From positions 99,076,001 to 99,140,000 of the forward strand of contig NC_092347.1 in the NCBI RefSeq assembly GCF_963676685.1: a DNA stretch of 64,000 nucleotides, read 5' to 3'. The position numbers and the translations under genes were made by a program. Below the pieces are notes generated by a model. The model was not told the DNA's origin. It worked only from the letters and a program-made list of their open reading frames with translations, and did no database searches. Source of the DNA: Mytilus edulis. Taxonomy: Eukaryota. Within the stretch, counting starts at the first letter, position 1. Each line of letters opens with the position of its first letter. This document shows positions 1 through 48,538 of this stretch, in pieces.

Positions 1-108
1 ACCGTCCCATGATCCTTGATTGTAACTATCATAACTGCGGCGAGCACTGGCTAAAGAAACTAACACAGCAACATGAGCAAGCCCGATAACAATTGCAAAT
101 GTGTTCAT
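1..108 (-). CDS. Gene A (partial, runs off the window): first coding exon of a secreted G/N/R/S/W-rich precursor family member
   Basis: Reverse complement reads tttacag|aaaccATG, giving MNTFAIVIGLAHVAVLVSLASARRSYDSYNQGSWDG. Hydrophobic signal peptide; SYNQGSW matches gene B SYNQRSW; same cag|aaaccATG context as gene B. Non-coding exon 1 is ~688-624 with a GTGAGT donor at 623-618. Missed by the ORF track. Confidence 0.85.
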   Translation of the reverse strand, partial: MNTFAIVIGLAHVAVLVSLASARRSYDSYNQGSWDG

Positions 109-699
109 GGTTTCTGTAAAACAAAAAGATACATCAGCGTTATTATACCAAATTAACAATGATAAAGAAATCTTGTGTGTTTTGACGTTATTTTTATGTG
201 ATCCTTATAGATATGAAGCGTTTACTTTGCTATCAATCTATTTCAAAAGAAATTGATACATCTGCTTTAATATCTTAATCTTTTAAACGCGTTTTGATAA
301 ATTGATTCATAAATCAAGTAGAAGATATATGCTTAGTACGAAATGTTTCATGAACGTTTTCCAATTGCAAATATTTGACAAGAGTTATTCTTATTGGCTT
401 TGTTACCTCTTATTGTGAGGAATGCATATAAACTGAATATTTTTATTTTAACATTAATTAAGAATAAAGTTTTTCTTCGCCAGCATTCTTGAACATCTTC
501 GAGATGTATTTGGAATACAACAGAAAGTTTTCTTTGGATCAAATACAATATAAAATCATATTAAAGAGCTTAATTCATATAACTTGTAGATAAATATATA
601 AGAAAAAGCAATGAACAACTCACATGTTTTTTTCTTTTAGAGTATGATGTACTGTAATGGATTGTAAGACACAAATGGATAGAGAACTGAGATAACATT

Positions 700-840
700 C
701 TTCTTTTATACTATTTTGATACAAGGAAATAAATATTGGGGAATAATAAAACTCAAAATAAATCAACTGAACTACGTAGATTTTTTATTATACCATTACA
801 GGTTGTGAAGGTTATGACCAACATGTCAATGTCACTCGCA
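700..840 (-). promoter_or_regulatory. Gene A core promoter
   Basis: TATAAAA at 710-704, TTTCCTT at 729-723, TCAGT initiator-like motif about 20 nt downstream of the TATA start. TACGTAGT and TGACAT..GGTCAT..AACCTT motifs are shared with the paralogs. Confidence 0.65.
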
Positions 841-5593: not shown

Positions 5594-5801
5594 TGACATT
5601 GATTTGTTGATCATTGTCGTAACCTTTACATCATATAACTGTTTATTGATATACGTAGTCTACTTGTGTTATTTTGGTTTTCAAAAATCCCCATTTAGCA
5701 GTGTTTCCTTTAAAAAATAGTATAAAACCGAAATGCTATCTCAGTGTTCTCTATCGCATATCGTATCATTCATCAAATACTTTCAAGAAAAGAAAACACA
5801 G
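5594..5801 (+). promoter_or_regulatory. Gene B promoter and non-coding exon 1
   Basis: TTTCCTT at 5704, TATAAAA at 5721-5727, TCAGT at 5741, donor CAG|GTAAGT at 5801/5802. Confidence 0.7.
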
Positions 5802-6336
5802 GTAAGTTATTTACTTAGTTTGTTTATATCAATTTAGAAAATTTTTACTATCTCAGCTGTTTCAATCTCATATTTATTAGAAAATGATACTTGGTTACTG
5901 CTTTTTCAAATAAATAAATGTCATAACTTTGCTGATTGATATTTCAAATTAAAAAGCGTGATAATAACAACCCTCGAAAGAGCATCGTTTTCCTGTATCA
6001 TTTTTTAGTATTGTTTCACTCATCGTCTTATAGAGATACAGCGGCTCTTTTCACAAAATGCGTTAACAGTAACAAAAATCGTACGTTAAACATTTTTCCA
6101 GAAATCGATTAAAAAGAATACTTAGTTTTATGTACCTTTTTGGAAAACTTAATAATTTGACAAACGTTTTTTGTTGTGTCATATTATTAGCAATGCACAC
6201 TTTTTATTCCAAATTTAAAATTTTTTTCAATGATTTTTATTTGCCCTGTTGTAGCATAAATATTTATGTTGTAGCTTTAATCACAATTAAATTGATAAAG
6301 TATTTAATAATTTAATTTATCCTTTTTTCAGAAACC

Positions 6337-9300
6337 ATGAATACCTTAGTTTGTGTTGTTATGCTTGCTGTGCTGGTAACTTTAGCCACTGCTAACAGTT
6401 ATAATCAACGATCATGGGGTTCACAGGGATCCAGAGTTTTGGGAAGTAGATGGAATAGTAGACAGCTGAATAATGGTTGGAATAGTGGTTGGAATGGTGG
6501 ACGTCTGTCAGGGGGATTAAATGGCGGATATCGAAGTAAGTTATATAATATTTATTCCATTTATCAACAGAGATTAGCAAATGTCCATTATTGTTGGTTT
6601 ATAAACTACAATTTGGGCTTCTTATTCACACATAAGCCACGTTCTTATTTATATGACGTAGGTTGACCAACAAAAGTATACAACCCCCCTTTCATAGATA
6701 TAAGTCATTCATATGAGCAAGTAGTACCCAACATTGCGTCCATTCATAAATTCTGAACAAATTTCAAAATAGTCAATGTTTACTGTATTTTTTTTTATGA
6801 AAGGATGCATGCAAAATATCTAAATTGCTTATTTCTAAAAGTTTACTATTTTTGGACGTTATGTTGCTTTCGTTGTAACTTTTTTCAAATTATACTTCAA
6901 AAGAAGAGGGACGAAAGATACCAGACTCATAAATCGAAAATAAACTGACAACGCCATGGCTAAAAATGAAAAAGACAAACAGACAAAGAATACAACACAT
7001 GACACAACATATAAAACTAAAGAATTAGCAACACGAACCCCACCAAAAAATGAAGTGTAAGCAGATCCTTCTCCACATGTGGCACCCATCGTGTTGCTCA
7101 TGTTATAACAATTTAATGTATATGTAAAAAAGGAATTTTATACTTATTATTATTAGATGAATGAGCGTAAATAGGTTGATATGTTTTATCTACTAACATG
7201 TATGAATGGAGCACCAATATAACTTGACATTTTGCACTTTAAATAATTATAAAATAATTATAAAACATGATATTACTTCTGTAGGGCACAAAAGAGCAGC
7301 TACATATGATCCATACAGAAGCAGTCATTTTGACAGTGGATTAGGACGTTTTGACAGATGGGGGATTAATTCAGGGAGGAGATCTAATTTAGGGTGGGGA
7401 TCTAATTCAGGATGGAGTCAACAAGGTAAGTTTCGATTATGCATCAGATTAGATTTTCTCAGCATCTCTGAACTGTCATATGTCTCATTATGTTTAATTA
7501 TTCTTTTAAATGCACGGCCGACACTCGGCTAACCGAGAGTTTGGTCGGTTAATCTATATTGAGTATGCGGCTATATCGGCGGTTGGTCTGTTAATCGGGT
7601 TGGTTATACGTCTGTTAAGAGTAAAACTCACAATTTAATGTTAAACTCTGTTAAATATACAGATTTTTGCCATATTATGAGAACCACATAAAAAAAAGAA
7701 AAGTGTCTGACAAAATGATATCTATCATAGAACAGTTTCCACCAGTAAAAAAAATGCATAGCCTGCGCAGTTTTAAGTAAAACGAAAAGGCGTCTCGCAA
7801 GTATGTGGTTTTTATGCTTGTACGCATAGCAATATTTTGGATAGACGGCTAAAAAACATTTTTATATATGATTTAAAGGACACAAAATAGTACTTTGGTT
7901 CTAAAAAAATAATTGTCATTGATAAATATTTCATAATTGTTATATAAGTTGAGTAATACCACATTTTAATGAATATTAGGGGACTAAAGTCTGTTAATGG
8001 GTTTATCAATTTAAATCGTGTCAGTTAAGAGTTATTTAGCCACGACAATAGTCTTACTACCTTTAGTTTATATTTTCACATTGAAAAAAATTAGATGTAC
8101 TTGTGACGAAAAAATTACAATACGGTGCAACAGTATCCTTATAGAAAGAGAACTTTAATTTTAATTTTATTTCTTTGCATTTCCTTGAAGGGTATGTCAC
8201 TTCAATATAGCGTTATATGGACTGATTGGCCGCTCGAATTCGCACGAATTTATTATTTACGCCAAGTTATCAATCAGCCTTTTTTTTTTCTGTTCAAAGT
8301 CTGTAACATCTATGAATCTGTCATGTGTTGCAATGCAGCTGGTTAAATTAAGGCTTTTCTACCTCAGGAATAGATTACCTTATGCCGGCATCACACATTG
8401 GCGTATAGACCGGCGTGCACCAAACGTACAGAGAAAATTGACAAAGTCGGTATACGTTAGTTGCATGCCATAGGAACGCTTAGCAATCGTTCAAAGCGCG
8501 TTGCATAAGTTTGTAGTACGTCGACATACAAAGGTAAAATTGAGAAAGGAAATGGGGAATGTGTCAAAGCGACAACAACCCGACCATAGAGCAGGCCAAG
8601 GCCACCAATGGGTCTTCAATGTAGAGAGAAACTCCCGCACCCGTAGGCGTCCTTGATCTGGCCCATTAAAAAATATGTATACTAGATCACACAAGACTAA
8701 CAAAGACCAGAGGCTCCTGACTTGGGACAGGCGCAAAATTGCGGCGGGGATAAACATGTTTATGAGATATCAACCCTCCCCCTATTCCTCTAACCAATGA
8801 AGGAAAGTAAATACGCTTGATGAACGCTACAATCCCAGGAAATTTGTATGCAGCATAAAAAACATACAACATACGCCAACATACGTTTCTAGTACGCCCA
8901 ATACACGCTTAAAGCTCGTTTTGCACACGTTACAAATATGATTGACAGGTTAAATGCATCCAAAATTACTAGCGTATTGGCAGCGTAAATGATTTTGAAC
9001 ACTCCAGTGCTATACGCTGATGTGTGACGCCGGTATTAGTTGTGTTTCCTCAATGCTTTTCAACTTCGTGTTTTATTTGGCCTTTTAAGGACATCCGATA
9101 CAGTTTTTCGATATAATGTCATTTTTATAGTTTTGAAATATGTTGTAGGCCTTCGCGAGTTATAAAATAAAACACAAAATAAAACATAGGTCACCGTGCT
9201 CGTTTTCGAGAAAATTGAGGCTGAAAATTGGGGATATGTGCAATTTTGCAAAAAAGGCAGGCAATGTTATAAAATTTATGGAGCAAATATTCTTCGTCGT

Positions 9301-12300
9301 AAATTATTAAGATCGGGTTCAATTTGAAGCTGTGATAAGTGACAATAAGTAAAAAAAATAATCCCTACACGAATGACTATACAATTATTCAAGCCTTGCT
9401 TAAAATTGCGGACCAGATGCTCAAAGTGGTATTTTTTTAATCCAAAAATATGGAAATAAAGTGTTAATGGAAATGTCATTTTTATCATTTTTTGCATAAA
9501 CTGCATTTTGTCATGCTTTCTCCAAATCTCAAAAAAAATATATATGTCACCGTGCTGGATTCTATGATAAACGCGATTTATCCTAAAAATTGCGTCCCCC
9601 CCCCCCCCCTTTGTCACCTCAACGATAGCGCTAAAGTGCACGACGTCGCTGGCAGACTTTTTCGATGTTATCGCTGCAAATTTCCGGCGACATTTTTCAG
9701 ATGTATATATAAATATTGCTTGTAAAGAGCAACCTATAAATAGGTAATATTGTTTTCGGAAATAAAATCATGTAAGTCATGAATACATCTCTTTGTTTGT
9801 GGTCTAAGTGAGAAATATCGTAAGAAAAGTGATTAATTACTGATGATAATTTTTATGGCTTTTAAAATTAAAGACATTGCAATTTAGAACTTGACATACA
9901 GGTACATGTACTGTACACACTCGTGTATTAACGTATGTTTTAATTTATACCATATGTTGACCTCTAGATGTTTGTTAATTATTTGTTTTGTTTTGTTTGG
10001 TGGGCTGCTGTTTCATTACAATACTCCTTTAAATTCCTCCATTCACGTTTTAATCACTTTTTAGAATGTCACATTAATTCATAAAATTAAACTTTTATTC
10101 GGGTCAATGATAACAATTGAATAAAGTTGGGAGGCTCCTAAACAGTTTAAAATTCACAGTTTTTATAGCTGACTATGCGGCTTTTCTCATTGTTGAAAAC
10201 CGTACGGTGACCTGTAGTTGTTAATTTATGTGTCATGTTGTGTCTCTTGTGGAGAGTTGTCTCATTGGCGATTATACCACATCTTCTTTTTTTTTTTGTG
10301 TCAGAAAACAAAACAAAATCTTATAAAGGAGAATCTTCAATATGCTAAAGGATGCTTTTGTCCCGACAGAGAAACTATACCATAATTATTTCAATTTTTG
10401 ATTTGGCAAAAACGATTGAATTAATAGGGAGAGGACTGGACAAATTACCTATGCGCAATTTCATTGGTAAATTATAACTATATATTGTTTTCACCACAGC
10501 GCGACGCATTGCGGGGTACATAAAATATCGCACGTTCATTCCTCTGTCTGTTCTTCCAGTCCTTATGGTTAATTAGATTTTTTCAAGTATACAATTCTTG
10601 CCAAATTTCCATTAAACTGATATCGTATGGATACGTTCGAAAATCAGTGCATATCAACTATCCTTTAAAAAGAGTTATGTCATTCGAAAATTTTGGAAAT
10701 TGCATTGTATTTGCTGTCATTCCGTCATTTCTCTTATATATTTGTAAATGAAATAAAAAGAACAAAATAAACAGCTCGGAACTACGAGCGCATGATACGC
10801 ATGAAAAAAACCCATAATACATGTTTTAAAACAACACGGAAGGGGGGGGGGAATAATTCAACAAACAAGTATGTGAATTTGCAATAATTTTCTATTATTT
10901 CTGAGATACAGTGCGACATGTGAAAACCATCTCTTTTTTCATAAACTCATTAACTCTAAAAATAAAATTTGAATCATCCTCAAAAAGTATACAGATCTTC
11001 AGACATGTTTACGACGAACAGACGGAAGCCGGACATTTGTATACCATAATACGTCCTGTCAAAATTTTGCATGAAATATTTGCCACTGGACGTTAAACAA
11101 CCAACAATCAATCAATTTATAGGACATAGTCTTGGTATTAAGCTGGCATTTAAAGAAGCATCGTCCTCATATCAAAAATGATAATTGACATGCATTATAT
11201 TAGTAACACCAAAAAGGGTCAGTCATCTCGAGATTGCTAACTATACGATATTTTGTTGAAGATCTCACAGAAACAGTAATGTGTTTTATTTCTTATGGTT
11301 TTATTAGACTGCTATCCTGTTAGAATCAAATGCACTAATATTAATGGTGTAGAAGTTAGATGCTGGAGAAACAGAAATTGGAGCATCGAAAATCCACATT
11401 ATGTTTCTAATTACGGAAAATTACACGCATTACGTCCCGCTAAAAGTGACGTTTTGCGGGCGCGCCAAGAGTTAACTCCCTTGAAACTGTATCGGATGCC
11501 CTTAAACATTTTTTTCGTCACTGATGAGTTTTTCGTAGACGAAACGCGTGTCTGGCGTAAATATAAGGCGTAAATATAAAATTTCAATCCTGGTATCTAT
11601 GAGTATCTCCGGTATGTATTGTCTTTTGAAACTAATATTACTTTGATATTACACTTTTTGAAACCAGTTCTATCAATTTTCAGATTCCATTGTCTAAACT
11701 TATGTTTCATTGTTCATGTGTTGTTTCCATATATTCTAGCCACTAATCTTGAGTCTATCCCTTTATTCAGATAACACCCCATATAGCAATTAAATTATGC
11801 TTGTAATGTCATTCATAACTCTTAACAGACCAATTAACAGACCGAGTTTTATACATCCGACCCATTAACAGACCACATTTTTATCAAAAATTGATTTATG
11901 TCACCAAAATACAGTTTTTCGTGTAGATTTTTCACATATTGATGTTAATATGGTAAACAAACATAATGCCTGTCTTTTTTCGATGTTCAAAATATTGCAT
12001 GCAAGTAAACTCAACCAACTTGTCATTTTTGTGTACATTTTGTGTGTGTAAAATGTGTATAAATTTACTGATGAGTAACTCGCCTTTTCATTTTATAGAT
12101 CGTTTATTGAAGCTAGAAAAAAAAAAATTACACCACTGGATTCAGTACTCCAAATCGTTTTGTCAGACATGAATAGTTTTTATGATATAAATATAATTAA
12201 AAAGTTATACAATGAAACATAATAACCTTGCAATGATTTTCTCGATAACACCTGATTAACAGACTTTAGCCAACCCGATTAACAGACCAACCGCCGATAT

Positions 12301-12703
12301 AGCCGCATACTCAATATAGATTAACCGACCAAACTCTCGGTTAGCCGAGTGTCGGCCGTGAAATGAGAGTTTTGTTTAAGTCATATACTATATATGTATA
12401 CTACAGGAAGTTCACCATTCGATGTTGTAAACTAATTGTTTTTTTAATTTTTAATAGATATTAATCCCATTTTTTTTTTAAAGTTAGGAGTTAAACAAAT
12501 TTACAATCGGTATATTCTCATCATCGACGACATCTTATGCTAGTTTTTCTAACGAATTCTGTTATAGTTGATATCAAAATAATGAAGTGAATGTCAACAA
12601 AATGGGAAAAGATGTAGGCTTTAATTGATTATATTTGTAAACTGTAAAGATATTTCCTTATTTATAAGTTAACAAAAGGTTTTATTATTTTACAGGATAT
12701 TAG
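6337..12703 (+). CDS. Gene B: 115-aa secreted precursor without the expanded repeat (coding exons 6337-6535, 7285-7425, 12696-12703)
   Basis: All introns are phase-1 GT-AG. Protein: MNTLVCVVMLAVLVTLATA-NSYNQRSWGSQGSRVLGSRWNSRQLNNGWNSGWNGGRLSGGLNGGYRRHKR-AATYDPYRSSHFDSGLGRFDRWGINSGRRSNLGWGSNSGWSQQGY*. The last exon is identified by homology to paralog last exons (ttttacag|..tatt ... cgtagatttt..AATAAA at 12771). Confidence 0.85.
8383..9035. mobile_element. PIF/Harbinger-like MITE nested in a retrozyme-like repeat; itself contains a common repeat at ~8533-8812
   Basis: TTA TSD at 8380-8382 and 9036-9038; imperfect ~26-bp TIR tgccggcatcacacattggcgtatag / ctatacgctgatgtgtgacgccggta. The host repeat (gattacctta|g.tgt) resumes after it. 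Confidence 0.7.
9089..11501. mobile_element. Kolobok-like non-autonomous DNA transposon nested in the same host repeat
   Basis: TTAA TSD at 9085-9088 and 11502-11505; 18-bp TIR ggacatccgatacagttt / aaactgtatcggatgccc with 1 mismatch. GG termini fit Kolobok rather than piggyBac (CC). Confidence 0.7.
11516..11557 (+). ncRNA. Minimal hammerhead ribozyme (intact core), sense strand in gene B intron 3
   Basis: cgtca-CTGATGA-gttt(ttcgt)agac-GAAA-cgcgt-GTC-tggcg. Confidence 0.72.
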
Positions 12704-15114
12704 GAAAGCCGAGGACACAAGGAGTACATTTCAAGATATGAACAATCATCCGTAGATTTTTACTTTTTTTAATAAAAATTGTGAATTTACTTCCTTTTAT
12801 AAAAATGAATATGCATGTGTAAATATAAAAAAAAAGATGTGGTATGATTGCCAATGCGACAACTGTCCACAAGATACCAAAATGACACAGACATATACAA
12901 ATATAGGTCAACAGCCTTCAACAATGAGCAAAGCCCATGGCGCATAGTCAGCAGTTAGTAATTTCAAACCTCTAGAAGAAGGGGTAAACTGTAGAAATTT
13001 TAGAACAGGCTCACATTGACAGTTTATAACATCCTAACATTTATTATTTTGTTATAGCGCTTTCATGAGTTTACATTCACAAGCATCGATCATGACTATA
13101 ACACATGGGGGACAAAGGTGTTAGGGAATATGGTCATTCTTATATTATCCCAAATTCATGTATTCAGTTATGATGTTATATTTGTTATTCTCATCGGATT
13201 TTGTCTAATGCTAAGTTCGTTTCTGAGTGTGTTACATTTTTATGTTGTGTCGTCATTCTCTTATATTTAATGCGTTTCCCTCGGTTTTGGTTTGTGACCC
13301 AGATTTAGATGTTTTTCTATCGATTTATGAGTTTTGAACAATGGTATACTACTGTTGCCTTTATTTATGCGGGTATATCAAGCTCATTGTAAACAGTTAA
13401 AGAGTAGACCTTAAAAAAAGCATTCAAGTCAACTTTGAGTAAGGCATCAGTTTTTATAATAATTCATCAATAGAGTTGCAAATATAGGTTTCTGAACATG
13501 TATGTACCTACGCAATGACCAGTAGGCTACTTATACCAAGTTGGGACTTACAGTCTACCAGCGGTGCAATCGATCTTATGAAAATATCTTATATTATTTT
13601 TTGCATCTAACGCTCTTTCCCTTGTAAAAGAAGGACGATAGATACCAGAGAAACAGTCAAACTCATAGATCAAAAATAAACTGACAACGACAGGGCTGAA
13701 AATGAAACACAAACAGACAAATAATAGTATACATAATACACAACATAGAAAACTAAATACTAAGCGACACAAACCCCACCAAAAACTTGGGATGATCTCA
13801 GGTGCTACGGTAGGATCAACACATTCTGCTATAAATTGGCACCCGCCGTGTTATTACAAACCCAGTAAATAGTGTAGGGATACCAAAGGGACATTTAAAT
13901 TCATAATTCGAAAATGAATGTAATTTTAGAGTATCAATTTTTTCCAACTCTGCCACACAAGGGGAGACAAATCAAATAAAGGCAATTTTACAATAGAATT
14001 TGTTAGGAACTAACCTATTTTCAAGTCAGGAATATGACAGTTGTTATCCATTCGTTTGATGTGTTTTGACTTTTGATTTTGCCTTTTGATTTTTGATTTT
14101 CCTTTTTGAATTTTCCTCGGAGTTCAGTATTTTTGTGTTTTTACTTTTTATTATGTAGCAATACAACGGGTCTCGTGATTCCTTTTTTATTTTCTTATCT
14201 GGAACCCTAACATTAGAGCTATCTTCTCATATTTTATCTCATAATTCAATTGTGTTGTTTTCGTTTTCTTGCAGAAAATTGGGTTTTTCATGCATGATCT
14301 ATACAAAATCTGTCAATTTCAATTGTGCTTAACCTGTAGCGTAAAAATAAGTCTCATGACCAATTATTTATATTATTTTTTTTAAATACGTGACATAAAC
14401 TACGTTTTGCAAATTATTAAAAAAATCTATGGATTATAATTTAGATACCCCATCTACCTAAAGACTGTTTCCACTGTTTTAATCTATTGTTCTTATGTTG
14501 TACTGTCCCCGGTTATGGGAGGGTTGATATCTCGCCAACATGTTTAACCCCGCTACACTCTTTATGTATGAGCCTGTCCAAAGACAGTAGCTTGTAAATC
14601 AGTATTTGTGGTTCGTAGATGTGTTACATATTTGTCTTTCGTTCATTTGTTTTACCATAAAATTAGGACGTACGTTTTCTTGTTTGAATTGTTTTACTTA
14701 ATCATTTTCTGGACTTTTATAGCTGACTATTCGGTATGGGCCCTGCTTATTGCGTAAGTTGTGTAAAATATAATTAAAAAACCTCTATGTATGTTTTCTG
14801 CGTCTGAAGTGTGTTTACGGATCCGCCTTAATACGGACGTTCATGGCGAATATTTAAAAGCCAATAATGTATACATCTACATCTGTAGACCTATATGTAT
14901 ATGACCAAGAGGGTAAAAATGAAATCATAAAAATATGTACACTATGTTGTACATATGATCCAGTCTTCTTTCCCAAAATGTTACCTAACGAATAACGTAA
15001 TCATCAGGTTGTACTTAGATGAGCAGCAGAAAGGTTGCGACTTGAATCTGATTACCCTTCCGAACACTTTATATTAGGTACATTTAAAAATTTGGAATTC
15101 TAAACAAATGATCA

Positions 15115-16455: not shown

Positions 16456-17987
16456 TCAAATCCAAAGACTTTAAAAAGGCCAAAGTATTTGTGTGATCTT
16501 TTTTTTCTTTATAAGTTTGATGTTCTGATTTTAGTGTCAGTAAAGCCGTGGACTTTCAAAGTTTAAGTAAAATTGAGAATAAAAATGGGGAATGTGCCAA
16601 AGCGAGAACGACCCGACCATAGAGCAGACAACAGCAGAAGGTCACCAACAGGTCTTCAATGTAACGAGAAATTCCCGCACCCGGAGGCGTCCTTCAGCTG
16701 GCCCCTTAACAAATATATACTAGTTCAGTGATAATGAACGCCATGCTAAACTCCAAATTGTACACAAGAAACTAAAAGTTAAAATAGTACAAGACTTACA
16801 CAGGCCAGAGGCTCCTGACTTGGGACAGGCGTAAAAATGCGGCGGGGTTAAACATGTTTGTGAGATCTCAATCCTCCCCCTATACCTCTAGCCAATGCAG
16901 AAAAGTAAACGCATAACAATACGCACATTGAAATTCAGTTCAAGAGAAATGTATATGTCACATTTTTATGTTTGATTTTTTGGGATATTTTTCAATACGT
17001 GTCGGCAATGGGTACCGTTTTTGTTCAGTTTGGTCATTTCCACTTAACTTCTAGTGAATTGTCTTCCGCAATGATATCTTGTTGTTCAGTTTTAGGTATA
17101 AGATATAGGAAGATGAAGAATAAATGCCAATGAGACAACTCTCCATTTAAGTCAAAATTTATAAAACTAAACCATTATAGGTCAAAGTACGGAATTGAAC
17201 ACGAAGCCTTTGGTCACACTGAACAGCAAGCGTCATTATTAATCCCGACATTATATTATACTTATATGGTAATTTTTTATAAGTTTTGACATTTCTTATT
17301 GCTAATGGGCTTTAACTATATCCACTAGTTTTTCTTTTTAATTGTTAGCATTGTTAAATGTTTTAATATAGATTAAGATAATAACACAATGTTGACTTCT
17401 GTATCCCTGGCTCAGTATTTAAACATGTTGCCATTATGTTATTGTGCTAAGGTTATTAGAATCTTAATTTACGGTTTGCTTTTGTAGTTTGTCTATAGAG
17501 TGTCTAGACGCTTTTATGTCTTTCGTTGTTTGTGGTTTTAAAAATAATAAGATTATAACACAATGCTGACTGCCGTGCCATTTTTTTTATTCTTCATTTA
17601 AATATTACAAATTTTAGAACGTGCCACCTTTGCCTGTGACATTATTCATTTTTGTCATTCATTGTTGTATTGATTAATCCTTTCTAGATCGCTTTATTCT
17701 ACTTGTTTATATAAGTATTTGATTTGCATAAATATCTTTAAACAATTTAATCCTGATTTGTATTCTCTTTTGAATTGTGGTAAAACATAAAAGGTAGGGT
17801 AATACATTTCCACAATAAAACCAAATGTAACGCTTCAGTCACATGATGTTACAAGAATATTTAACGAAGGAAATATGTTGCTTATATTGTTTTATTTTAT
17901 TTTAAAAAAGTAATAAAATCTACGAATTGTAACGTTGTATGTACACATGATGTATGGTGGTCCCTTCAGTCCATCTCAGTTTAAATA

Positions 17988-19420
17988 TTCTGTAAAATAA
18001 AAACAGATGACTTATTAAATCAGAAAAAAAACATAACTTGATTAATAATAACTTTATTTCTATGACATTATGTTTGTTTAATGTACCGAGTTGGTACATT
18101 TTATCTTATACCGTTTGAAAATTTTGTATTCCCCGTTTGTGATCCATATTGTGCACTTTTTACTTGTTTATAAATAAATATCAGAATTATATCAAGCTTA
18201 ACTACTATTTATGTGGCATTTATAAACATACATACTATATGTAAATGTTAACGTGCTTGTTGATAAAAATATATTTAGAATAGTCTTACGCTACATTCCT
18301 TATGGCAACATACTTAAATTTGAAGTTTTCACAAAATCATATAAAACCCAGAAGGCGGAAGCATATTTTAATTGATTTAGAAGTAAGTACTTACACCATT
18401 GTGAATTATATCTTAAGTTTGATCTCCATCCTGAATTGCCACCCAATCTATTAAATCGTCCACTGTTAAAATTATTACGGATACTTCCTCTGTTTCCTCT
18501 GTATGAATTACGTGGCCTGTGAACAGCTGATCTTCTAGATCTGTATTCTACAAAAACAAATAATTTTAAAATAATCGTTTTATCTATTGATCTCCTACAA
18601 ATATGTTTAAAAAGCAACAAATGCTTGATCTTTACAAATTTTTACAGATTTATTATCTATTTAATATAAAGTTTTAGTTGTTTGTGAGCAATGTAGATTC
18701 GCAGAACCAATGACTGTTCTAAGTCTTTAGTGAATAAGTCCCAATATTATAGAAAAAAAAACATATACATGTGCATGTAAAAACATATTTATTGTTGTTC
18801 CGTGTCTTCGTACTATTACAGTTGACGTGATTCCCTAGAATTACAGGTTTTAACCCGTGTTTATGTTCATTTAATTGATTTTTGATTTTTGACTATTGCA
18901 CAGCTTTATTTATTTTTATCAATATTGAATATCAATGAACTCATTTAAAAGTAAATATTCCTAATGTCTTACGTCTTTTTCCAGTATCTAAAGCTCCATT
19001 CTGATGTCCCTTATTCAATCTTCCGGTCAATTGTCCATCATTCCATCTTCCGGTCAATTGTCCGTCATTCAATCTTCCGGTCAATTGTCCGTCATTCAAT
19101 CTTCCGGTCAAATGTCCGTCATTCAATATTCCGTTCAAATGTCCGTCATTCAATCTGCCGTTCAAATGTCCGTTATTCAATCTTCCTGTCAATTGTCCGT
19201 CATTCCATCTTCCGGTCAATTGTCCGTCATTCCATCTTCCGCTCAATTGTCCATCATTCAATCCACTGTTAAGATGTTCATTATTCCAATCTCCGTTAAG
19301 TCTAGATCCCCTCAATCCTAATGATCTCCGAGTTGACGGAATGGTGTCGCTTTGATATACACGAGCTGAGCATAAAGTTACAACAGCAGCAAGTCCAATG
19401 ATTACTGATAACATATTCAT
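17988..19420 (-). CDS. Gene C: 200-aa secreted repeat precursor with 9 nonapeptides (coding exons 19420-18973, 18547-18395, 17989-17988)
   Basis: Signal MNMLSVIIGLAAVVTLCSA, then 9x(L/W)N(D/N)G(Q/H)L(T/S/N)G(R/I), ...LDTGKR, then exon 3 QYRSRR-SAVHRPRNSYRGNRGSIRNNFNSGRFNRLGGNSGWRSNLRYNSQW. Stop T|AA is split by the last intron. Canonical splice sites. Confidence 0.88.
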
Positions 19421-20264
19421 GATTCTGAGGGAGAAAAATAACTGATTATTCTAAAACTATCTGATTCAAAGCTTCAAAATGTACGCAAAATTAGATACTG
19501 TAGAATTCAAACAATTATGTCAGAAAAATTAGAACCAAACTGTACCAATAATACTACATTGATGTTATCCATCCGTTTGGTGCATTTTATCATTTGATTT
19601 TGCCATTTGAATTTTAGTGAATTTCTGTTGTAGAATATTCCTCGGAGTTCAGTATTTTTTGTGATTTTTCTTTTTGTTCAGAAACATAACCAGTCAAAAC
19701 AGATAATGATAAATAATATGTAGATATTTATCAAATGCAGTGCATTCAATTGTTAGCACTTGACTATGATTTAAAATTATAGATTTTTTTTTTTTAATTC
19801 AACCTTGCAATGACATGTAGAGTTAATATCAAATTTTTTTAGTCGCATTGGTTCTAGTTTGATATCCATTAGTGACAATTATGTTTTGTCGATCTAAATA
19901 TTCTTAAGAGAGTAATTCTAGTGAGATACGGTGCCCAGACACTACACAAAACATTAATAAAAAACAATTACCGTTAAATTCGATGTTTTCCTTATTAGAC
20001 CAACATTTGTGTTTGAATAAAGGCAACAGTAGTATATAGCTGTTCGAAATTCATAAATTCATTGAGAAAAAACAAATCTGGGTTACAAACTAAAACTGAG
20101 GGAAACCCATCAAATATAAGAGGAAAATATTCCTAATGATTTCGATGAATTAAAACATAAAAATTATTTTTTATTGTCACAAATGTTAAAAAAATCAGTT
20201 TTGAAAAACAATATTTGATTAGTGAAATTCAAAATACAAGCTTGTAATTTACATAAAACTATAC

Positions 20265-20510
20265 CTGAAAATTCTTTCTTTTTAACGCTTTGCAGGCAAT
20301 AACATAAAACGAATATGGAAACATTGAGGAAAAATTCTTCTTTTATACGTATTGTAAAGAAGGAAATAGTGGTATTTTGAAATGTTTTAAAATGCAAATT
20401 ACATTAAAAAAAAACACATAAATTTGATTGAAACATTCGCAGGTTGTAAAGTTAACCACACTGACCTATATGTCAATCTCATTAGCTTAATGTCAGAACA
20501 GGTAACAGCC
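20265..20510 (-). promoter_or_regulatory. Gene C non-coding exon 1 and promoter
   Basis: Donor CAG|GTATAG at 20265/20264; TATAAAA at 20347-20341; TTTCCTT upstream; conserved CTGACATTAAGCTAAT...GACATATAGGTCA block. Confidence 0.7.
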
Positions 20511-27764: not shown

Positions 27765-28002
27765 TACCTGTGCTGACATTAAGCTAATAAGAATGACATA
27801 TAGTTCATTGTGGTAAATTTTATAACCTATTATTGTATCAAATGAATTAACGTAGTTTGTTTGTGTAGTTTGGGTTTTAAGAATTTCCCGAATTTACAAC
27901 GTTTCCTTCTTTGCAATTTGTATAAAAGGAGAATGTTTCATCAATACTTTACATTCGTTCTAAGTGATTATTTGCAAAGCGTTAAAAAGAAAGAAGATTC
28001 AG
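27765..28002 (+). promoter_or_regulatory. Gene D promoter and non-coding exon 1
   Basis: Conserved upstream block, TTTCCTT at 27902, TATAAAA at 27921-27927, donor CAG|GTAAAG at 28002/28003. Confidence 0.7.
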
Positions 28003-28968
28003 GTAAAGTGCTTTTTATACTTTTATTATCCATTTAAGCTTATACTTATAGTATTGCTGACTAATTTTTTTTTTCATTGTCGTTTTATGGATCTTCTTTA
28101 GATATTAGTAGCAAAAGCAACTTAAGTGTTTTAACTTATCCAAATCAATTAAATTATATAGACATGGGGAAAACTTACATTTTTCGGGAACATTTAATGT
28201 TGTTGCTTTGGCAAAGTTTGTATCAATTCCGTGAGAAAATTTACAGTATATATTAAAAGAAATTTGATGTGACCTTGTTTTCTAACGATTTCTTGTATAT
28301 CAATTGTGCATGATTTGATACAAACTTTTTGTCCAATAAGGAATAAAATTACTTTATCTTGGCGTCACTGATAACAAGCGTTGCTTAAAAAAATGATTTA
28401 TAGTTAAGAAACAATAAAAATATTTCATCATTTTTAACAAACATTGTTATTATAAAGTAAGTAAGGATATGAGGGTTATGAACCTGTGCTTTGCTTTCGA
28501 AAGTTGTTTCAAATTATATATTGTTCAGTTTCTGTGTATCGTGTTTTAATATGTTTTTCGGGCAATCTTTCACTGAAATTCTATTCTAAATGAATCTATA
28601 TAATATATATCTAAGGTATCGGCTCCCAATGTATAACAGACCAAAACAGCGATTCAACAATTTTAGAATTAACTCTAAGTGTAATTACATTGTTATATTG
28701 AGAAACAAATATGTTTATAGGTTACATCATACTCAATTGCTAACAATTTTGCATTTCATATATAATGACTTTTCTGTTTTGATTTTTAATTTTTTATTCA
28801 ATGACTGTTGCTTTAACAATCATACTGTATGAGTAGTACAATTGGGTTCAAATTAAGCGTTTCATATGACATTTTGACTCTAGTTTTACATCCGTTATCT
28901 GTGCACATATTTTGAAGCTTTGTTTTGAATTTTTTAAATATAATAGATTATTTCTCTCCCTCAGAACC

Positions 28969-30374
28969 ATGAATATGTTACCAATAATCATTGGACTTGC
29001 TGCTGTAGTAACTTTGGGCTCGGCTCGTGTATACAACAGCAACACCTTGCCATCAACTCGGAGATCATTAGGGTTGAGGGGATCTAGACTTAACGGAGAT
29101 TGGAATAATGAACATCGTAACAGTGGATTGAATGATGGACATTTGAGCGGAAGATGGAATGACGGACAATTGAGTGGAAGATGGAATGATGGACAATTGA
29201 CCGGAAGATTAAATGACGGACATTTGTCCGGAAGAATAAATGACGGACATTTGACCGGAAGATTGAATGACGGACAATTGACCGGAAGATTGAATGACGG
29301 ACAATTGACCGGAAGATGGAATGATGGACAATTGACCGGAAGATTGAATAGGGGACATCAGAATGGAGGTTTAACTAGTGGAAAAAGACGTAAGTATTAG
29401 CAATATTCACTTTCAAAGGAGTTCATTGATATTCAATATTGGTAAACATAAATAAAGTTGTATACCGCTGTTCAATAGTCAAAAATCAATTAAGGAAACA
29501 CAAATGCGATTTAAAATCTAAATTCAAGGACAATCCGTTAACTTTTATAGTACGAAGACACGGAACAACAACATTTTTTTTTACATGTACATGTATATGG
29601 ATTTTTTTTCTAGAATATATAGACTTATTAACTTAAAACTTAGAACAGTAATTGGTCGGACGAATTAAGATTGGTAACTTACAACTAAAAAATATATATT
29701 GAATAGATAATAAAATCTGTGAAATTTGTAAAGATAAACAATTATTGGCTTTTTAAACATATTTGTTGGAGATCAATAGTTTAAATGATAATTTTCAAAA
29801 AATGTGTTTGCAGAATACCGATCTAGAAGATCAGCTGTTTTCAGACAAAGCAATTCATACAGAGGAAACAGAGGAAACAGAGGAAGTATCCGTAATCGTG
29901 TTGACAGTGAACGATTTAATAGATTGGGTAGAAATTCAGGATGGAGATCAAACTCAGGATATAATTCACGATGGTGTAAGTGTTTACTTTTATATCTAAT
30001 AAAATGCCTCCGCATTATGGGTTCTATATCATTTTGTGAAGACTTCAAATTTCCCATAACCAACGTAGCGTTAGACTTTTTTTATATATTGTCCAACAAG
30101 AACGTTAACATTTACATATAGTATGTAGGTTTGTATATGCCATATACATAATTTTGAAAGTAGTCATGTTTAAAAAATTCTGGTATTTATTTATAAGCAA
30201 GTAAATGGTGCTAAATCATGGATCACAAACGAGAAACAAAAATGTCAACGGTACAAGACACAAATGTATCAACTAGGTATCCAAAATAAACATAATTTCA
30301 AAGAATAATTATATTATTAAACAAGTTATGTTTAGTAACTGATAAATAAAGTATACTGTTTTTATTTTACAGAA
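28969..30374 (+). CDS. Gene D: 194-aa secreted repeat precursor with 8 nonapeptides (coding exons 28969-29389, 29814-29975, 30373-30374)
   Basis: Signal MNMLPIIIGLAAVVTLGSA; 8 repeats; GGLTSGKR|QYRSRR-SAVFRQSNSYRGNRGNRGSIRNRVDSERFNRLGRNSGWRSNSGYNSRW; split stop T|AA; AATAAA at 30465. Confidence 0.88.
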
Positions 30375-32519
30375 TATTTAAGTTGAGATTGATTGGAGGG
30401 ACTACCATACATCATGTGTACATACAACGTTGCATTTCGTAGATTTTATTACTTTTTTTTTTTAAATAAAGAAATTAATATAAACAACATTATTTTCTTT
30501 CGTTGAATATATCTGAAAAATCATGTTACTGAAATGATTTTATTGTTCAGGAGTGTCACCCCCACCCCCTCCTACTTAAGAAAATGACTATACCACGTCA
30601 GGAATATGGCAGTTGTTATCCAATCCTTTGATGTGTTTGAACTTTCGAATTTGGCATTTCATTTGGGACTTTCCTTTTAAAATTTTCCTTGGAGTTCGGT
30701 ATTTTTGAGATTTTATTTTTCCCTAAATTGTATATCTTAAACCCAATACGCAATTAAAGAAAAGTATTCAAGATCTAATGGTAAAACAATTAAAATATTT
30801 ATTAAGTTACATCTACTATAAACTGTAGGCGAACAAAGAACAATGTCAACAAGGAAAGATCACACTCTATAGACAAACCACATAACCCAAAATGACCACA
30901 ACACAATAACACAATGGCGATATGTACAAATACAGAGCAACGCTAAAAGGTATTAAATAAAATTTGATATGTTACTAAGATGATAAACAACGTTGGTACC
31001 TTAACGTTTTACTTTTATACCATCATGTACTATTTATGAAGCTGATACTGAACATTCATCAACCAGGTACTGGTATCTTCTAATGTACCTTTTCATAAAA
31101 AAGGACGTGCCATTTTTTGACATACCCCTGGTTCATTGATATTCGGAGCAAACACTTGTGATATTTACAAAGACAGAGTACCAACTTGGTTTTAGAAAAA
31201 GGACGATGTTGTCTTTGATTTAAACCTTGTATATGTAAATCAGCTTTCCTCAGAGACAGTGCAGACGTTTATCAAGTTTGAGAAGTACAGTGCAAGCTAA
31301 TGAATACCCAAATGTGTATCTCATTTACCGGTTAAATTGATATTATTGCTCAGGTGAGATAAATATACTTTATCAAAGATTCTGGTACGGCGATGACTGC
31401 TTACGTCTAAATATCAAGTTAGGGGAAGATAGAAGATACCAGAGGGACATTAAAATTCATTAGTTCAAAATAAACTGAAAATGCAATGTTTAAAAAAACG
31501 AAAATGACAAATAGACAAACAATAGTACACAAAACACTATAAAACAAAACTAAAGACTGAGCCAAACAAACTAGGGGTTATTTCAGGTGCTTCAGAAGGG
31601 TAGGCAGATCCTGCTCCACATGGGACATGTTAGGAAATTGAAATCATCCCTTCGTTAGTTTATCGGACACTATAACGAATTGACTGACCGTTATGGAATA
31701 AGAAAGGCAAACGTGTTATACCAGTGTGGCCTTTCTTTATCAATAATGGTCAACCAACTCTTGATTTCGTCAATAAATAAAGGCAACAGTAGTATGCTGC
31801 TGTTCGAAATTCATAAATCGATTGACAAATCTGGGTTACAAACTTCAAGTTAAACTGAGGGAAACACATCAAATATAAGAGGAGAACAACGACACAACAG
31901 AAACACTAAAATACAACACACACATAAACGAACTTTAAGATAACAGCTGCCATTCTCCTGACTTGGTACAGGACATAATAAGAAAAAAATTGTGTGGTTT
32001 TGCGGCTAGTTATACCTCGCGCTTTAATGGCAATGTTAAATATAACACCAAAATAGCAACATTACAAGACAGGACTACAGTACAAATAAATGCAAGAACA
32101 TTCAGATTCAGGACAGAGAAATACAAAAATAAACATTACAATAGGACATTGCTAATCGTTATCAAGTAATAAGATAATTGCTTGTATTATCAAGCTATGT
32201 CGATATTTCTTTTAAATCAAACAATAAAACAAATAAATGGTATACAATCGTTAAGTTGCTCCAAACTAAAATGTTATTAATGAACAGGGCGACCAATTTT
32301 CTTTACTTTCTTAAAAAATATTGAAAAATAGAATTACAACCACAGGCGACAACACATTTAACAATATACAATCAAAATTACAAGCACAACATCATAACTA
32401 AATAAATTAACACGTCTTATAGTAATGCGAAATCCCACTCAGCAAAACAGTCAAATTCGGAAATAGGTCACGTTCAGTAATTAAAAGACCAGACGACGTT
32501 AATGGCAAACAGCAATCTA

Positions 32520-37000: not shown

Positions 37001-38099
37001 TCTGAAGAAAGCTGATATACATATACCAGGTTTAAATCAAAGACAACATCGTCTTTTTCTAAAAACAAAAAAAGTTGGTACTCTGTCTATGTAAATATCA
37101 CAAGTGTTTGCTCCGAATATCAATGAACCAGGGGTATGTAAAAAAACATCACGTCTTTTTTTCTGAAAAGGTCCATTGAAAGATACCAGTACCTCGTTGA
37201 TAAATGTTCCGTATCAGCTTCATAAATAATACATGATGGTATAAAAATAAAGAGTATAGGTACCAACGTTGTTTATCATCTTAGTAACATCTCAAATTTT
37301 ATTTAATACCTTTTAGCGTGGCTCTGTATTTGTACATATCGCCATTGTGTTATTGTGTTGTGGTCATTTTGGGTTATGTGGTTTGTCTATAGAGTGTTTA
37401 TACGCCATTTGATCTTTCCTTGTTGACATTGTTAGTTGTTTTAATGGTATTATATCACATTGTTGAAAGGTGTACTCTAATTTTTGTTTGTTTTTCTCAC
37501 ACATTGATGTCAACTAAATGAAACCCTATATGACTGGTGTAGTAAATATGATATAGATATTCAAGTTCCCTGAGTGTTGATGTATCATAAAGTCTCTTGA
37601 GATTTTGACAGGAATCACGTTCCATGTGTTGATTCGTTTACATTTTATGGTAGATTTAACTTAATAAATATTTGAATAGTTTTACAATTAGATCTTGGAT
37701 TTTTTTTCCTTTAATTGCGTTTTGGATTTAAGATATACAATGTAGGAAAAAGTAAAATCTCAAATATACTGAACTACGAGGAAAGTTTTAAAAGGAAAGT
37801 CCCAAATAAAATGGAGAAATCAAAAGTTCAAACATAACAAACGATTGGATAACAACTGCCATATTCCTGACTTGGTATAGTCATTTTCTTAAGGTGGGGG
37901 AGGGGTGACACTCCTGAACAATAAAATCAACTGTAACTTCATTTCAGTCTCATGATTTTTACAGATATTTTCAAGGGAGGAAAATAATGCTGTTTATATT
38001 TATTTCCTTATTTTTAAAAAAGTAATAAAATCTACGAAATGTAACGTTGTATGTACACATGATGTATGGTAGTCCTTCCAGTCAATCTCAACTTAAATA

Positions 38100-39437
38100 T
38101 TCTGTAAAATAAAAACAGTATATTTTATTTATCAGTTACTAAACATAACTTGTTGAATAATATAATTAGTCTTTGACATTATGTTTATTTCAGATACCTA
38201 GTTGATACATTTTTGTCTTGTACCGTTGACATTTTTATTATTCTCGTTTGTGATCCATGTTTTTGCACCATTTACTTGCTTATAAATAAATACCAGAATT
38301 TTATTAAACATGACTACTTTAAAAATTATGTATATGGCATATAAAAACCTATATACTATATGTAAATTTTAACGGTATTGTTGGAAAATATAGAAGTCTT
38401 CACAAAATCTTAAAGAACCCATAATGCGGAAGCATTTTATTAGATATAAAAGTAAGTACTTACACCATCGTGAATGATATCCTGAGTTTGATCTCCATCC
38501 TGAATTGCCACCCAATCTATTAAATCGTCCACTGTCAAAACGATTTCGGGTACTTCCTCTGTTTCCTCTGTATGAAACACGTGGCCTGTGAACAGCTGAT
38601 CTTCTAGATCTGTATTCTACAAAATAACATTTTGAAAATTATCATTTAAACTATTGTTATCCAACAAATATGTTTGAAAAGCCAAAAATTGCTTATCTTT
38701 ACAAATTTGTCTGAACAGATTTTATTATCTATTAAATATATATTTTAGTTGTATGTTACCAAATTAAATTCGTCCGACCAATGACTGTTCTTATTTTTAA
38801 GTAAATAAGTCTAAATATTCTAGAAAAAATCCACATACATGTACATGTAAAAAAAAACATGTTGTTGTTCCGTGTCTTTGTACTATAACAGTTGACCTGT
38901 TTTCCTCGAATTTAGTTTTTTAATCGTATTTATGTTCCTTAAATTGATTTTTGACTATTGAACAGCGGTATACAAGTTTATTTATGTTTATCAATATTGA
39001 ATATCAATGAACTCATTTGAAAGTAAATATTGATAATATCTTACGTCTTTTTCCACTAGTTAAACCTCCATTCTGTTGTCCCCTATTCAATCTTCCGGTC
39101 AATTGTTCATCATTCCATCTTTCGGTCAATCGTCCGTCATTCAATCTTCCAGTCAAATGTCCGTCATTCAATCTTCCAGTCAAATGTCCGTCATTCAACT
39201 TCCGGTCAATTGTCCGTCATTCCATCTTCCGCTCAAATGTCCGTCATTCCATCTTTCGCTCAAGTGTCCGTCATTTAATCCACTGTTTATATGTTCATTA
39301 TTCCAATCTCCGGTAAGTCTAGATCCCCTCAATCCTACTGATCTCCGAGTTGACGGCAAGGTGTTGCTTTGGTAAACACGAGCTGAGCCTAAAGTAACTA
39401 CAGCAGCAAGTCCAATGATTATTGGTAACATATTCAT
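38100..39437 (-). pseudogene. Gene E: family member with 7 nonapeptides and a 1-nt frameshift (exons 39437-39045, 38616-38464, 38101-38100)
   Basis: The coding part of exon 2 is 393 nt, where 394 (421-27) is expected. GGAAG-TTGAAT lacks the A of GGAAGATTGAAT at ~39198, giving TGA at 39197-39195. Exon 3 is intact: QYRSRRSAVHRPRVSYRGNRGSTRNRFDSGRFNRLGGNSGWRSNSGYHSRW. Confidence 0.8.
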
Positions 39438-40530
39438 GGTTCTGTTGGAAAAAAATAATCTATCATATTTAAATAATTCAAAGCAAAGCTTCAAAATATG
39501 TGCACAGATAACGGACGTAAAATAAGATTCAATATGTAATATGAAACGCTTAATTTGAACCATATTGTACTCATACAGTATGATTTTTAAAGCAAATGAA
39601 CATTGATTGAATAAAAAATTACAAATCAAAACAAAAAAAGTCATTATTTATGAAATGCCAAATTGTTAGCACTTGAGTATGATGTAACCTAACATATTTG
39701 TTTCTCAATATAACAATGTAAATACACTTAGAGTTAATTCTAAAATTGTTGAATCGCTGTTTTGATCTGTTATACATTGGGAGCCGTTACGTTTGCTATA
39801 TATTATATATGTATTAATTTAGAATAGAATTTCAGTGAACGATTGAATTAAAGGGAGAGTAAAACACGAAACACAGAAACTATACAATATATAATTTGAA
39901 ACAACTTTCGATAACAAAGCATGAGGTTTTAACCCTAAAATCCGTACTAGATTATAGTTTAAAAATGTTTGTATAAATGTTGCAAATTTATTTTTTTTCC
40001 TAACTTTAAATATTTTTTCAAAAGTAACGCTTGTTATCAGTGACGCCAAGATAAAGTAAATATTATCCATATTGGACCAGAAGTTTTGGTAAACTCATGC
40101 ATAAGTGATACAATACATCGTTAGAAAACAAGGTCACATCAAATTACTATATATTATATACTGGATATTTACTATTATTCGTTAGGTACACATTTCTGTG
40201 GATTCCGTGGGTACTGGGGAACAACAAAATTAAATGTTTTAATTCTTTTAAAAAAATATACGCAAACTTTGCCAAAGCAGCAACGTAAAATATTCATGAA
40301 AATGTAAGTTTTCCTCAATCCATGACAATTGATACCCGCGAATATAAATCAATCCCAAATACATTATGTTATTTGATGGATTTTTGAAAATTAAAACACT
40401 AAGATTGTTGATTTTTTTACCATTAATATCTTAAAGTTCCATCAAACAATTACGAAAATTAATATTTGCTCAGCAAAATTTTAAGTATAAGCTCACATTG
40501 ATAATAAAAGTAAAATAAACAACACTTTAC

Positions 40531-40770
40531 CCGAAACTTGTTTGTTTTTAACGTTTTTCAGATGCTCACGAAGAAAGAATGTAGAGTATTGATGAACCAT
40601 TCTCTTTTTATACAAATTGCAAAGAAGGAAACGTTGTAAATTCGGAAAATTTTAAATCCAAAAATAACACAAACACACTACGTCAGTTGTTTTAATGCAA
40701 ACATTGGTTGGAAAGTTAACCACAATGACCTATATGCCATTCTAATTAGCTTAATGTCAGCACAGGTAAT
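40531..40770 (-). promoter_or_regulatory. Gene E non-coding exon 1 and promoter
   Basis: Donor GTAAAG at 40530; TATAAAAA at 40612-40605; TTTCCTT and the conserved upstream block. Confidence 0.65.
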
Positions 40771-47274: not shown

Positions 47275-47510
47275 TACCTGGGCTGACATTAAGCTAATTA
47301 GAATGACATATAGGTCATTGTGATTACCTTTACAACCAATGAGTGTTTTAAATACATTACGTAGTTTGTTTGTGTAATTTGGGTTTTAAGAATTTTCCGA
47401 ATATTCAACATTTCCTTCTTTGTAATTAGTATAAAAGGAGAATGTTTTATCAATGTTTTATATTCTTTCTAAGTGATTATCTGCAGAACGTTAAAAAGAA
47501 AAACATCCAG
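47275..47510 (+). promoter_or_regulatory. Gene F promoter and non-coding exon 1
   Basis: Conserved block, TTTCCTT at 47411, TATAAAA at 47430-47436, donor CAG|GTATAG at 47510/47511. Confidence 0.7.
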
Positions 47511-48538
47511 GTATAGTGTTGTTTGTTAACTTTTATTCTAAATATGTAAGAATTTTGCAGAACTTTTTTCATAATTGTTTTATTGAACTTTGTTTCAAAC
47601 ACTCGTGACAATAACAACAATCTTAATGTTCTGATTTATACAAAAAGAATTGGATTAATTTATATTCGAAGGTACCAATATTCGTAGATTTAGGAAAACC
47701 TGCGTTATCGTGGATATTTAGTTTCGTTGCCTTGGCAAAGTTTGCATAAATTCCTTTAGAATATTTTTAATTTGTTGAACATTTAAATTTGAGGTTCCTT
47801 ATTACCTTCGAAATCCATGAAAATGTGTATCCAAGGAGAAGAATGTAACATTTATATTTGAGTAATTAGATGTGACCTTGTTTTCTAACCATTTATTGTA
47901 TATAAAGTGAGCATCATTTGACTAGACTTGTGTTCAAATAAGGATAATATTTACTTTATCTTGGCGTCACTCATTACAATCATTGCTTTAAATTTTTATC
48001 TATAGTTAAAAAACAAACCTATTGTAACATAACAAACAAATAACATTTCTAAAATAGAAAGTAAGAATATTAGGGTTCTAAACCCATGCCTTGCCTTCAA
48101 AAGAGATATTATTTCATTTGTTATACAGCTTCAATAGACTGTATTACTCAATTTTTAATGCCCTCTTTCACTAGCATTACTTTTCTAAATTGATATATAA
48201 ATGTAAGATATATTTAATGTATTCATAAAACAGCGATTCAACCATTTTAGAATTACTTCTTCGTGTAATTGTAATGTTATATTGCAGAAACACATATATA
48301 AGGTTACATCAAACTCAAGTGCTAACAATTCTGAGTCATACATGTAGAATTTTTTGTTTTAATTATTATTATTGTATTCGTGCTATAAAATCATACTGTA
48401 TGAGTACAGTTTTTGCTCAAATTAAGCGTTTTATGTGACATATGAACTCTGGTTTTACATATATTTAAATGTGCACATATTTTGAAGCTTTGTTTTGCAT
48501 TTTTTAAATATAATAAATTATTTCTCTCCCTCAGAACC

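Follow-up and report, generated by a model that had tools for sequence, protein, structure and literature searches.

Gene C is a spliced and expressed four-exon gene of Mytilus edulis, whose third exon spans positions 18547-18395 of the window, that is, of the whole 64,000-nucleotide stretch analysed here. It belongs to a family of 12 genes restricted to Mytilus, and it is likely that its product is cleaved by a furin-type enzyme at the head of exon 3. The precursor is thus probably cut into two pieces, for which we tentatively favor a role as extracellular secretion over a defence role. These genes form an apparently undescribed, expressed and genus-restricted family of 12 likely secreted peptide precursors in a farmed species, and their predicted products of about 5.1-5.8 kDa are open to synthesis and mass search.

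The structure of gene C (Table 1) is supported by transcript contigs of four runs from four studies, presumed to be RNA. The exon 2/3 joint (18547-18973) is present in three of the four runs, and the fourth run has the same joint with the first base of a paralog. The exon 3/4 joint (17989-18395) was found in three of the four and the exon 1/2 joint (19424-20265) in one. Four raw RNA runs, whose tissue is not named, gave 0, 6, 17 and 1 reads, indicating low expression. In the 17-read run the first mates are all plus-strand, as most stranded libraries would give for a transcript of the minus strand. Four of its reads, carrying paralog-type differences, span the exon 2/3 joint at the main acceptor.

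Table 1. Features of gene C and of its paralogs in the window (positions are those of the window).
Feature	Position	Strand	Description
Gene C, TATA box and non-coding exon 1	20265..20347	minus	TATA box 20347-20341; exon 1 ends at 20265
Gene C, exon 2	18973..19424	minus	ATG at 19420; ends in Gly-Lys-Arg
Gene C, exon 3	18547-18395	minus	153 nt, between AG and GT; phase-1 introns on either side
Gene C, second AG	18540..18543	minus	7 nt into exon 3; the acceptor in 5 database gene models
Gene C, furin-type site R-S-R-R	18531..18542	minus	followed by Ser-Ala; predicted cleavage
Gene C, predicted C-terminal peptide	18396..18530	minus	45 aa, net charge +9, 5267.6 Da unmodified, predicted disordered
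Gene C, exon 4	17890..17989	minus	completes the stop codon; 3' UTR; AATAAA; 3' end approximate
Gene A	1..710	minus	promoter, exon 1 and start of exon 2 (ATG at 108); remainder left of the window
Gene B	5721..12790	plus	exon 2 coding 6337-6535, exon 3 7285-7425, exon 4 from 12696
Gene D	27921..30470	plus	exon 2 coding 28969-29389, exon 3 29814-29975, exon 4 from 30373
Gene E	38010..40612	minus	exon 2 coding 39437-39045, exon 3 38616-38464, exon 4 from 38101
Gene F	47430..50130	plus	exon 2 coding 48539-48986, exon 3 49417-49569, exon 4 from 50032
10-mer CGTAGATTTT of the window genes	17924-17915 (-), 12751-12760, 30438-30447, 38036-38027 (-), 50097-50106		3' UTR

Exon 2 of gene C encodes a putative signal peptide of about 19 aa and contains 27-nt (9-aa) repeats at 19005-19263. 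Exon 3 comprises the end of the junction codon, a Tyr, RSRR, 45 residues of which the last is Trp in the in-frame translation, and the first base of the stop codon. This stop is made by splicing, from the T at the end of exon 3 and the AA at the start of exon 4; in unspliced RNA the frame stays open onward into the intron. In-frame translation confirmed the head of exon 3 given by the initial annotation, YRSRR (RHKR in gene B), and a recount agrees with its peptide lengths after the site (45 aa in B, C, E and F, 48 aa in D), with its numbers of Arg and acidic residues (9 and 0 in C, 11 and 2 in D, 9 and 1 in F) and with the 5 Arg and 3 Asp of the gene B peptide. The same annotation had described exon 3 as a self-contained cassette of conserved length, and neither attribute held. 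The length after the site is 42, 45 (four genes), 47, 48 or 51 (five genes) residues among the 12 genes and up to 57 in orthologs, a range of 42-57, and it changes by 6-residue repeats. That B and C both have 45 residues is partly a coincidence, since this length was reached through offsetting indels. Moreover, the exon is completed from outside: in C-F the stop codon is split as T|AA over the exon 3/4 joint, in eight genes the first Arg of the cleavage site is formed across a splice joint, and the A/B-type genes have their final Gly-Tyr and the stop in exon 4.

Furin-type enzymes cut after R-X-[K/R]-R, and convertase substrates have a small residue after the cut and an unfolded stretch around it. 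All 12 genes encode R-X-[K/R]-R at the head of exon 3, as RHKR in six, RYRR in two and RSRR in four (C-F), and in all 12 the next residue is Ala or Ser; the predicted models have pLDDT below 50 around the site. The motif is kept in 29 of 35 database proteins, three of which come from the present genome and are therefore not independent. The six exceptions are five frame-shifted models and one model that extends into intron sequence. The conservation claimed for the R-X-X-R site thus extends to the orthologs. It must be taken into account that, when single proteins were shuffled (six proteins), 18-54% of the shuffles contained one R-X-[K/R]-R by chance, so that support for the site comes from its fixed position and its three spellings and not from its mere presence; a second copy was absent from the six proteins scanned. 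The best evidence that the site is used is that the motif is kept by different means. In the eight A/B-type genes the P4 Arg is a codon split by the exon 2/3 intron, while C-F have Gln or Leu at this codon and owe their P4 Arg to a 6-nt insertion. In C-F the cleavage site was hence kept via an offsetting insertion while the charge of the peptide roughly doubled. The position of the site, at the head of exon 3 in all 12 genes and in three spellings, makes furin-type cleavage there likely. In the sequence and the model, the N-terminus is a hydrophobic helix with small residues at its end, and the protein would enter the secretory path.

The 12 genes lie at 98.977-99.126 Mb of contig C4, over about 150 kb, six of them in the window and six to its left. 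Gene A has a RYRR site followed by 42 aa and gene B has RHKR followed by 45 aa. The proteins of genes B and F are identical to the uncharacterised M. edulis RefSeq proteins XP_071166167.1 and XP_071166170.1, respectively. Gene E has a 1-nt frameshift within its 27-nt repeats near 39200 (minus strand), which we attribute to a null allele or an assembly error because the matching model from another M. edulis assembly reads through. Homologs in the databases come from M. edulis, M. galloprovincialis, M. trossulus, M. californianus and M. coruscus, in addition to one unnamed fragment, and C-type proteins were found among them in M. edulis and M. galloprovincialis only. A profile search over 1.84 billion representatives gave six matches, five of them in the family, and nothing credible outside it; the sixth, a 1464-aa repeat protein, was rejected as only about 25 residues aligned, at the signal. 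Pfam searches with the exon pieces and the full proteins gave no match above the cut-off, a PDB sequence search returned a single weak match (E 0.074), and the best ESM Atlas scores (0.79 and 0.82) are leads only. On the basis of these searches the family is confined to Mytilus. In a tree of 25 proteins, which has no true root, the C-type clade is well supported and long-branched.

Database searches found no named byssal or shell protein among the homologs. A search of the accessible literature by motif, accession and description found no account of the family; the three motif matches in papers all rest on an automatic name in other animals. None of the foot-protein accessions in the accessible part of PMC7018726 is among the cluster members listed. 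The accessible part of PMC5549309 describes gill- and foot-specific low-complexity proteins in a related mussel.

The 3' UTR of all 12 genes contains an invariant 10-mer, CGTAGATTTT, just before the poly(A) signal, while the remaining UTR diverges. A wider 3' UTR pattern matches inside the cluster only, in 11 genes. The 10-mer may serve to control 3' processing or translation. At C4:99043749 (plus strand) there is an orphan exon 4, whose 10-mer is altered and which has no exon 2 or 3 in the preceding 6 kb; it is likely the remnant of a 13th gene. Between 18900 and 50200, C/E and D/F alternate in strand with a spacing of about 20 kb, and B/C and D/E are convergent, an arrangement suggestive of the duplication of an inverted pair. 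Intron 3 of gene B holds a 4.8-kb insert, likely a DNA transposon, bounded by 106-bp inverted repeats (7513-7618 and 12256-12360) that are 97% alike. A 55-bp tandem array of 17.5 copies (20777-21741) lies about 430 bp upstream of the gene C TATA box, with no comparable array listed at the other paralogs. To the right of the cluster there are ligand-gated ion channel exons (PF02931, PF02932) of at least two genes, at 56109-56663 (minus) and L009:3262-3882 (minus), and a third similar frame is found at C4:99155285.

The two halves of the precursor resemble each other. The exon-2 piece is about as long as the exon-3 peptide, with a similar charge, in eight of the 12 genes. In the four A/B-type genes profiled it has 47-51 aa and a net charge of +1 to +6, the exon-3 peptide having +2 to +5, and both halves have the same Gly/Asn/Ser/Arg/Trp make-up; for these reasons it is not an acidic pro-piece. 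Short repeats, of 9 aa and 6 aa, extend both halves. Every exon-3 peptide is devoid of Cys, and hydrophobic content is 18-29%. In C-F these peptides reach a net charge of +8 or +9, with 20-23% Arg and a pI of 12, and in the eight A/B-type genes they have +2 to +5, with a pI of 9.7-11.5 where computed. Their predicted masses are 5055.3 Da in B, 5267.6 Da in C, 5636.0 Da in D, 5174.5 Da in F and 5748.1 Da in three further members (U1-U3).

Selection acts differently on the two types of gene. In B-type genes omega is 0.115 for exon 3 (p = 2e-5; five of six genes, gene B being excluded because it differs in length by 18 nt) and 0.24 for exon 2 (p = 3e-4; six genes). Both halves are under purifying selection, exon 3 being the most constrained part of its gene, with invariant motifs across four species. 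In C-type genes omega is 0.37 for exon 2 (p = 0.03) and 1.59 for exon 3, with the 9-nt duplication of gene D left out, a value not different from 1 (p = 0.42; 0.7 to 6 are not rejected). Exon 3 has 20 non-synonymous and 4 synonymous changes in C-type genes against 6 and 12 in B-type genes (Fisher p = 0.001), so that the many amino-acid changes first reported among the paralogs are a property of C-F and do not describe the B-type genes. At the intron-2 rate, which may be inflated by intron alignment, 32 non-synonymous and 10 synonymous changes would be expected in C-type exon 3 (p = 0.03 for the synonymous ones). Both kinds of change are below the intron rate; the exon is loosely constrained, and positive selection on it is not supported. 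The C-F subfamily is a strongly diverged version of the gene, in which the repeat half is longer and the tail carries about twice the charge and is less constrained.

Since both halves are under purifying selection in B-type genes, it is more likely that the precursor gives two products. The exon-3 peptide had been taken for the mature product; a C-terminal cationic peptide is indeed likely released, but not as the sole product, the exon-2 piece being so alike. A furin-type protease would cut the precursor after RSRR, releasing two low-complexity products. Both halves would be functional, with Arg and Trp/Tyr/Phe among Gly/Ser/Asn spacers driving their self-association. Judged by low-complexity secreted proteins in general, the repeat-built, aromatic-dotted chains of both halves, rich in Gly, Ser and Asn, fit a self-associating secretion. 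We therefore suggest, with less than even confidence, that the two products self-associate as a secreted extracellular material (coat, mucus or matrix), the pieces more likely building a surface secretion than mussel glue. If so, a DOPA-poor recipe would be added to mussel biomaterials. At C4:98945979-98946650 (plus strand), 31 kb left (upstream) of the cluster, lies a gene for a Gly/Tyr-rich protein that begins with a signal-like stretch and contains GGYG repeats; it was counted for the secretion reading.

The low-complexity composition fits antimicrobial peptides equally, and we place the material role ahead of the defence role with both as candidates judged from sequence. The exon-3 peptide could be a furin-released linear cationic antimicrobial of a mucosal surface, of which C-F would be the more active and diversifying version. 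The charge and Arg content of C-F and the excess of non-synonymous changes in their exon 3 point this way, as does the resemblance of this tandem, genus-restricted, convertase-processed family to the myticalins and CRP-I, as far as the accessible parts of the sources on them go. However, the eight genes of lower charge are highly conserved out to M. californianus, there is no acidic, neutralising pro-piece, and the changes in C-type exon 3 stay below the intron rate, with omega not above 1. Besides, none of 19 peptides had a helical moment above that of shuffles at p < 0.05, so an amphipathic signal is absent. An antimicrobial role is possible but rather unlikely; it would make this a cysteine-free mussel family distinct from the myticalins.

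It is improbable that the functional product is the repeat part encoded by exon 2, with exon 3 as a discarded sorting or solubility tail, or that the site stays uncut. In C-F, and only there, exon 2 ends in an amidation-type Gly-Lys-Arg before the phase-1 intron, as in myticalins according to the accessible part of their description, and it is exon 2 rather than exon 3 that is constrained in C-type genes; the strong constraint on B-type exon 3 argues the opposite. The repeats are also the sole part modelled as folded. The 9-residue repeats of C-type proteins are modelled as a beta-solenoid with pLDDT of only 60-67, the gene F tail (the exon-3 peptide) has pLDDT below 50 in the AlphaFold model and is disordered, and an A/B-type protein is modelled as disordered beyond the signal. 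Perfect repeats can mislead structure prediction. Foldseek with the gene F model gave TM-scores of at most 0.35 by query length, and VIA-align gave many unrelated beta-solenoids with Z of 8-13, none outstanding; these fold searches return generic solenoids, and no function was drawn from them.

We consider it still less probable that the A/B-type genes encode short signalling peptides, neuropeptide- or pheromone-like, in which exon 3 would be recut at Ser-Gly-[Arg/Lys]-Arg to yield amidated peptides of 25-28 residues and 2.7-3.0 kDa. The motif SG[R/K]RSN, a possible second cut with amidation, is found in 16 of the 16 A/B-type proteins aligned, with one Arg-to-Lys swap, and conservation is strong. 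However, all four C-type genes have Trp in its place, and a repeated amidated motif and a family match are absent.

The second AG of gene C raises another alternative, namely that exon 3 of C-F is a charge switch, giving the +8/+9 peptide from the main acceptor and an acidic tail from the second. Use of an AG 7 nt (or 13 nt) downstream would produce a shifted-frame tail with a charge of -10 to -15 behind Gly-Lys-Arg, the AG at 7 nt giving -11 to -15. Genes D, E and F keep this frame open over the whole of exon 3, and the use of the AG by five database models, the occurrence of Gly-Lys-Arg in C-F only and the scarcity of synonymous changes (4, where intron 2 predicts about 10; p = 0.03) are in its favor. 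Against it, no joint at the second AG was seen in the four contig sets or in the four raw reads spanning the joint, and the frame has a stop in gene C and is closed in A/B-type genes. It is also open in 25-68% of codon shuffles of C-type exons, and constraint on it was unsupported, with omega of 0.87 in that frame. The switch is thus very unlikely. If true, the two partners of a complex coacervate would come from one gene, or the acidic tail would be a neutralising pro-piece resembling that of myticalins.

The likeness to mfp-3 drawn by the initial annotation did not stand up, and it is highly improbable that the exon-3 peptide serves the byssal plaque as a DOPA adhesive: its similar size, the similar charge in C-F and a weak exon-2 motif match are set against a Tyr content of 4-8%, as opposed to 19-24% in nine mfp-3 exons of the present genome, scores against mfp-3 that did not exceed those of shuffles at p < 0.05 in 25 of 27 comparisons, and the PF04202 profile, which matches none of the 12 family sequences scanned and has 19 matches in the genome, all on another contig (C5). 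Peptides of both kinds have about 45-50 residues, are rich in Gly, Asn, Arg and Trp, are disordered and come from tandem clusters. The exon-2 pieces of A and B contain a WNNGWN-like motif common to the mfp-3 exons of this genome, a weak likeness with z up to 5.2. Unlike mfp-3, the present peptides have 15-22% Ser (0-11% in mfp-3) and their precursors have an internal furin-type site. Foot expression, DOPA and hydroxyarginine are the features given for mfp-3 in the accessible part of PMC4275877.

Myticalins, in the accessible parts of PMC5577615 and PMC12294457, have three exons, a MKGxxLLLL signal, a central cationic peptide, a dibasic site and an acidic C-terminal extension; they are expressed in gill, with a pI above 11, more than 10% Arg and antibacterial activity. 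As far as those parts go, our genes share with them a Mytilus-restricted tandem arrangement, Cys-free and Arg-rich products, a non-coding exon 1, a start codon at the head of exon 2 and a phase-1 intron near a basic cleavage site. They differ in their four exons, MNT/MNM signal and C-terminal cationic peptide, with a supported splice form that has no acidic part. With signal consensus, peptide order and exon count all different from those described there, identity with the myticalins was rejected.

MgCRP-I genes, in the accessible parts of PMC4558851 and PMC10138031, have introns of phases 1 and 2 and encode a pro-region of about 15 residues and a mature region with six cysteines, which is under positive selection. 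Within that description, both are four-exon Mytilus families with a signal, a pro-region, a basic site and a C-terminal product, and in both the last coding module opens with the cleavage site. However, the products described here are Cys-free, their N-terminal piece has 47-130 residues and their intron phases are 1 and 1, so that identity with MgCRP-I was rejected for the lack of the six-cysteine array and the different phases. This apparently undescribed family seems to be of a known kind, a genus-restricted cluster of secreted prepropeptides, with a two-piece layout of its own.
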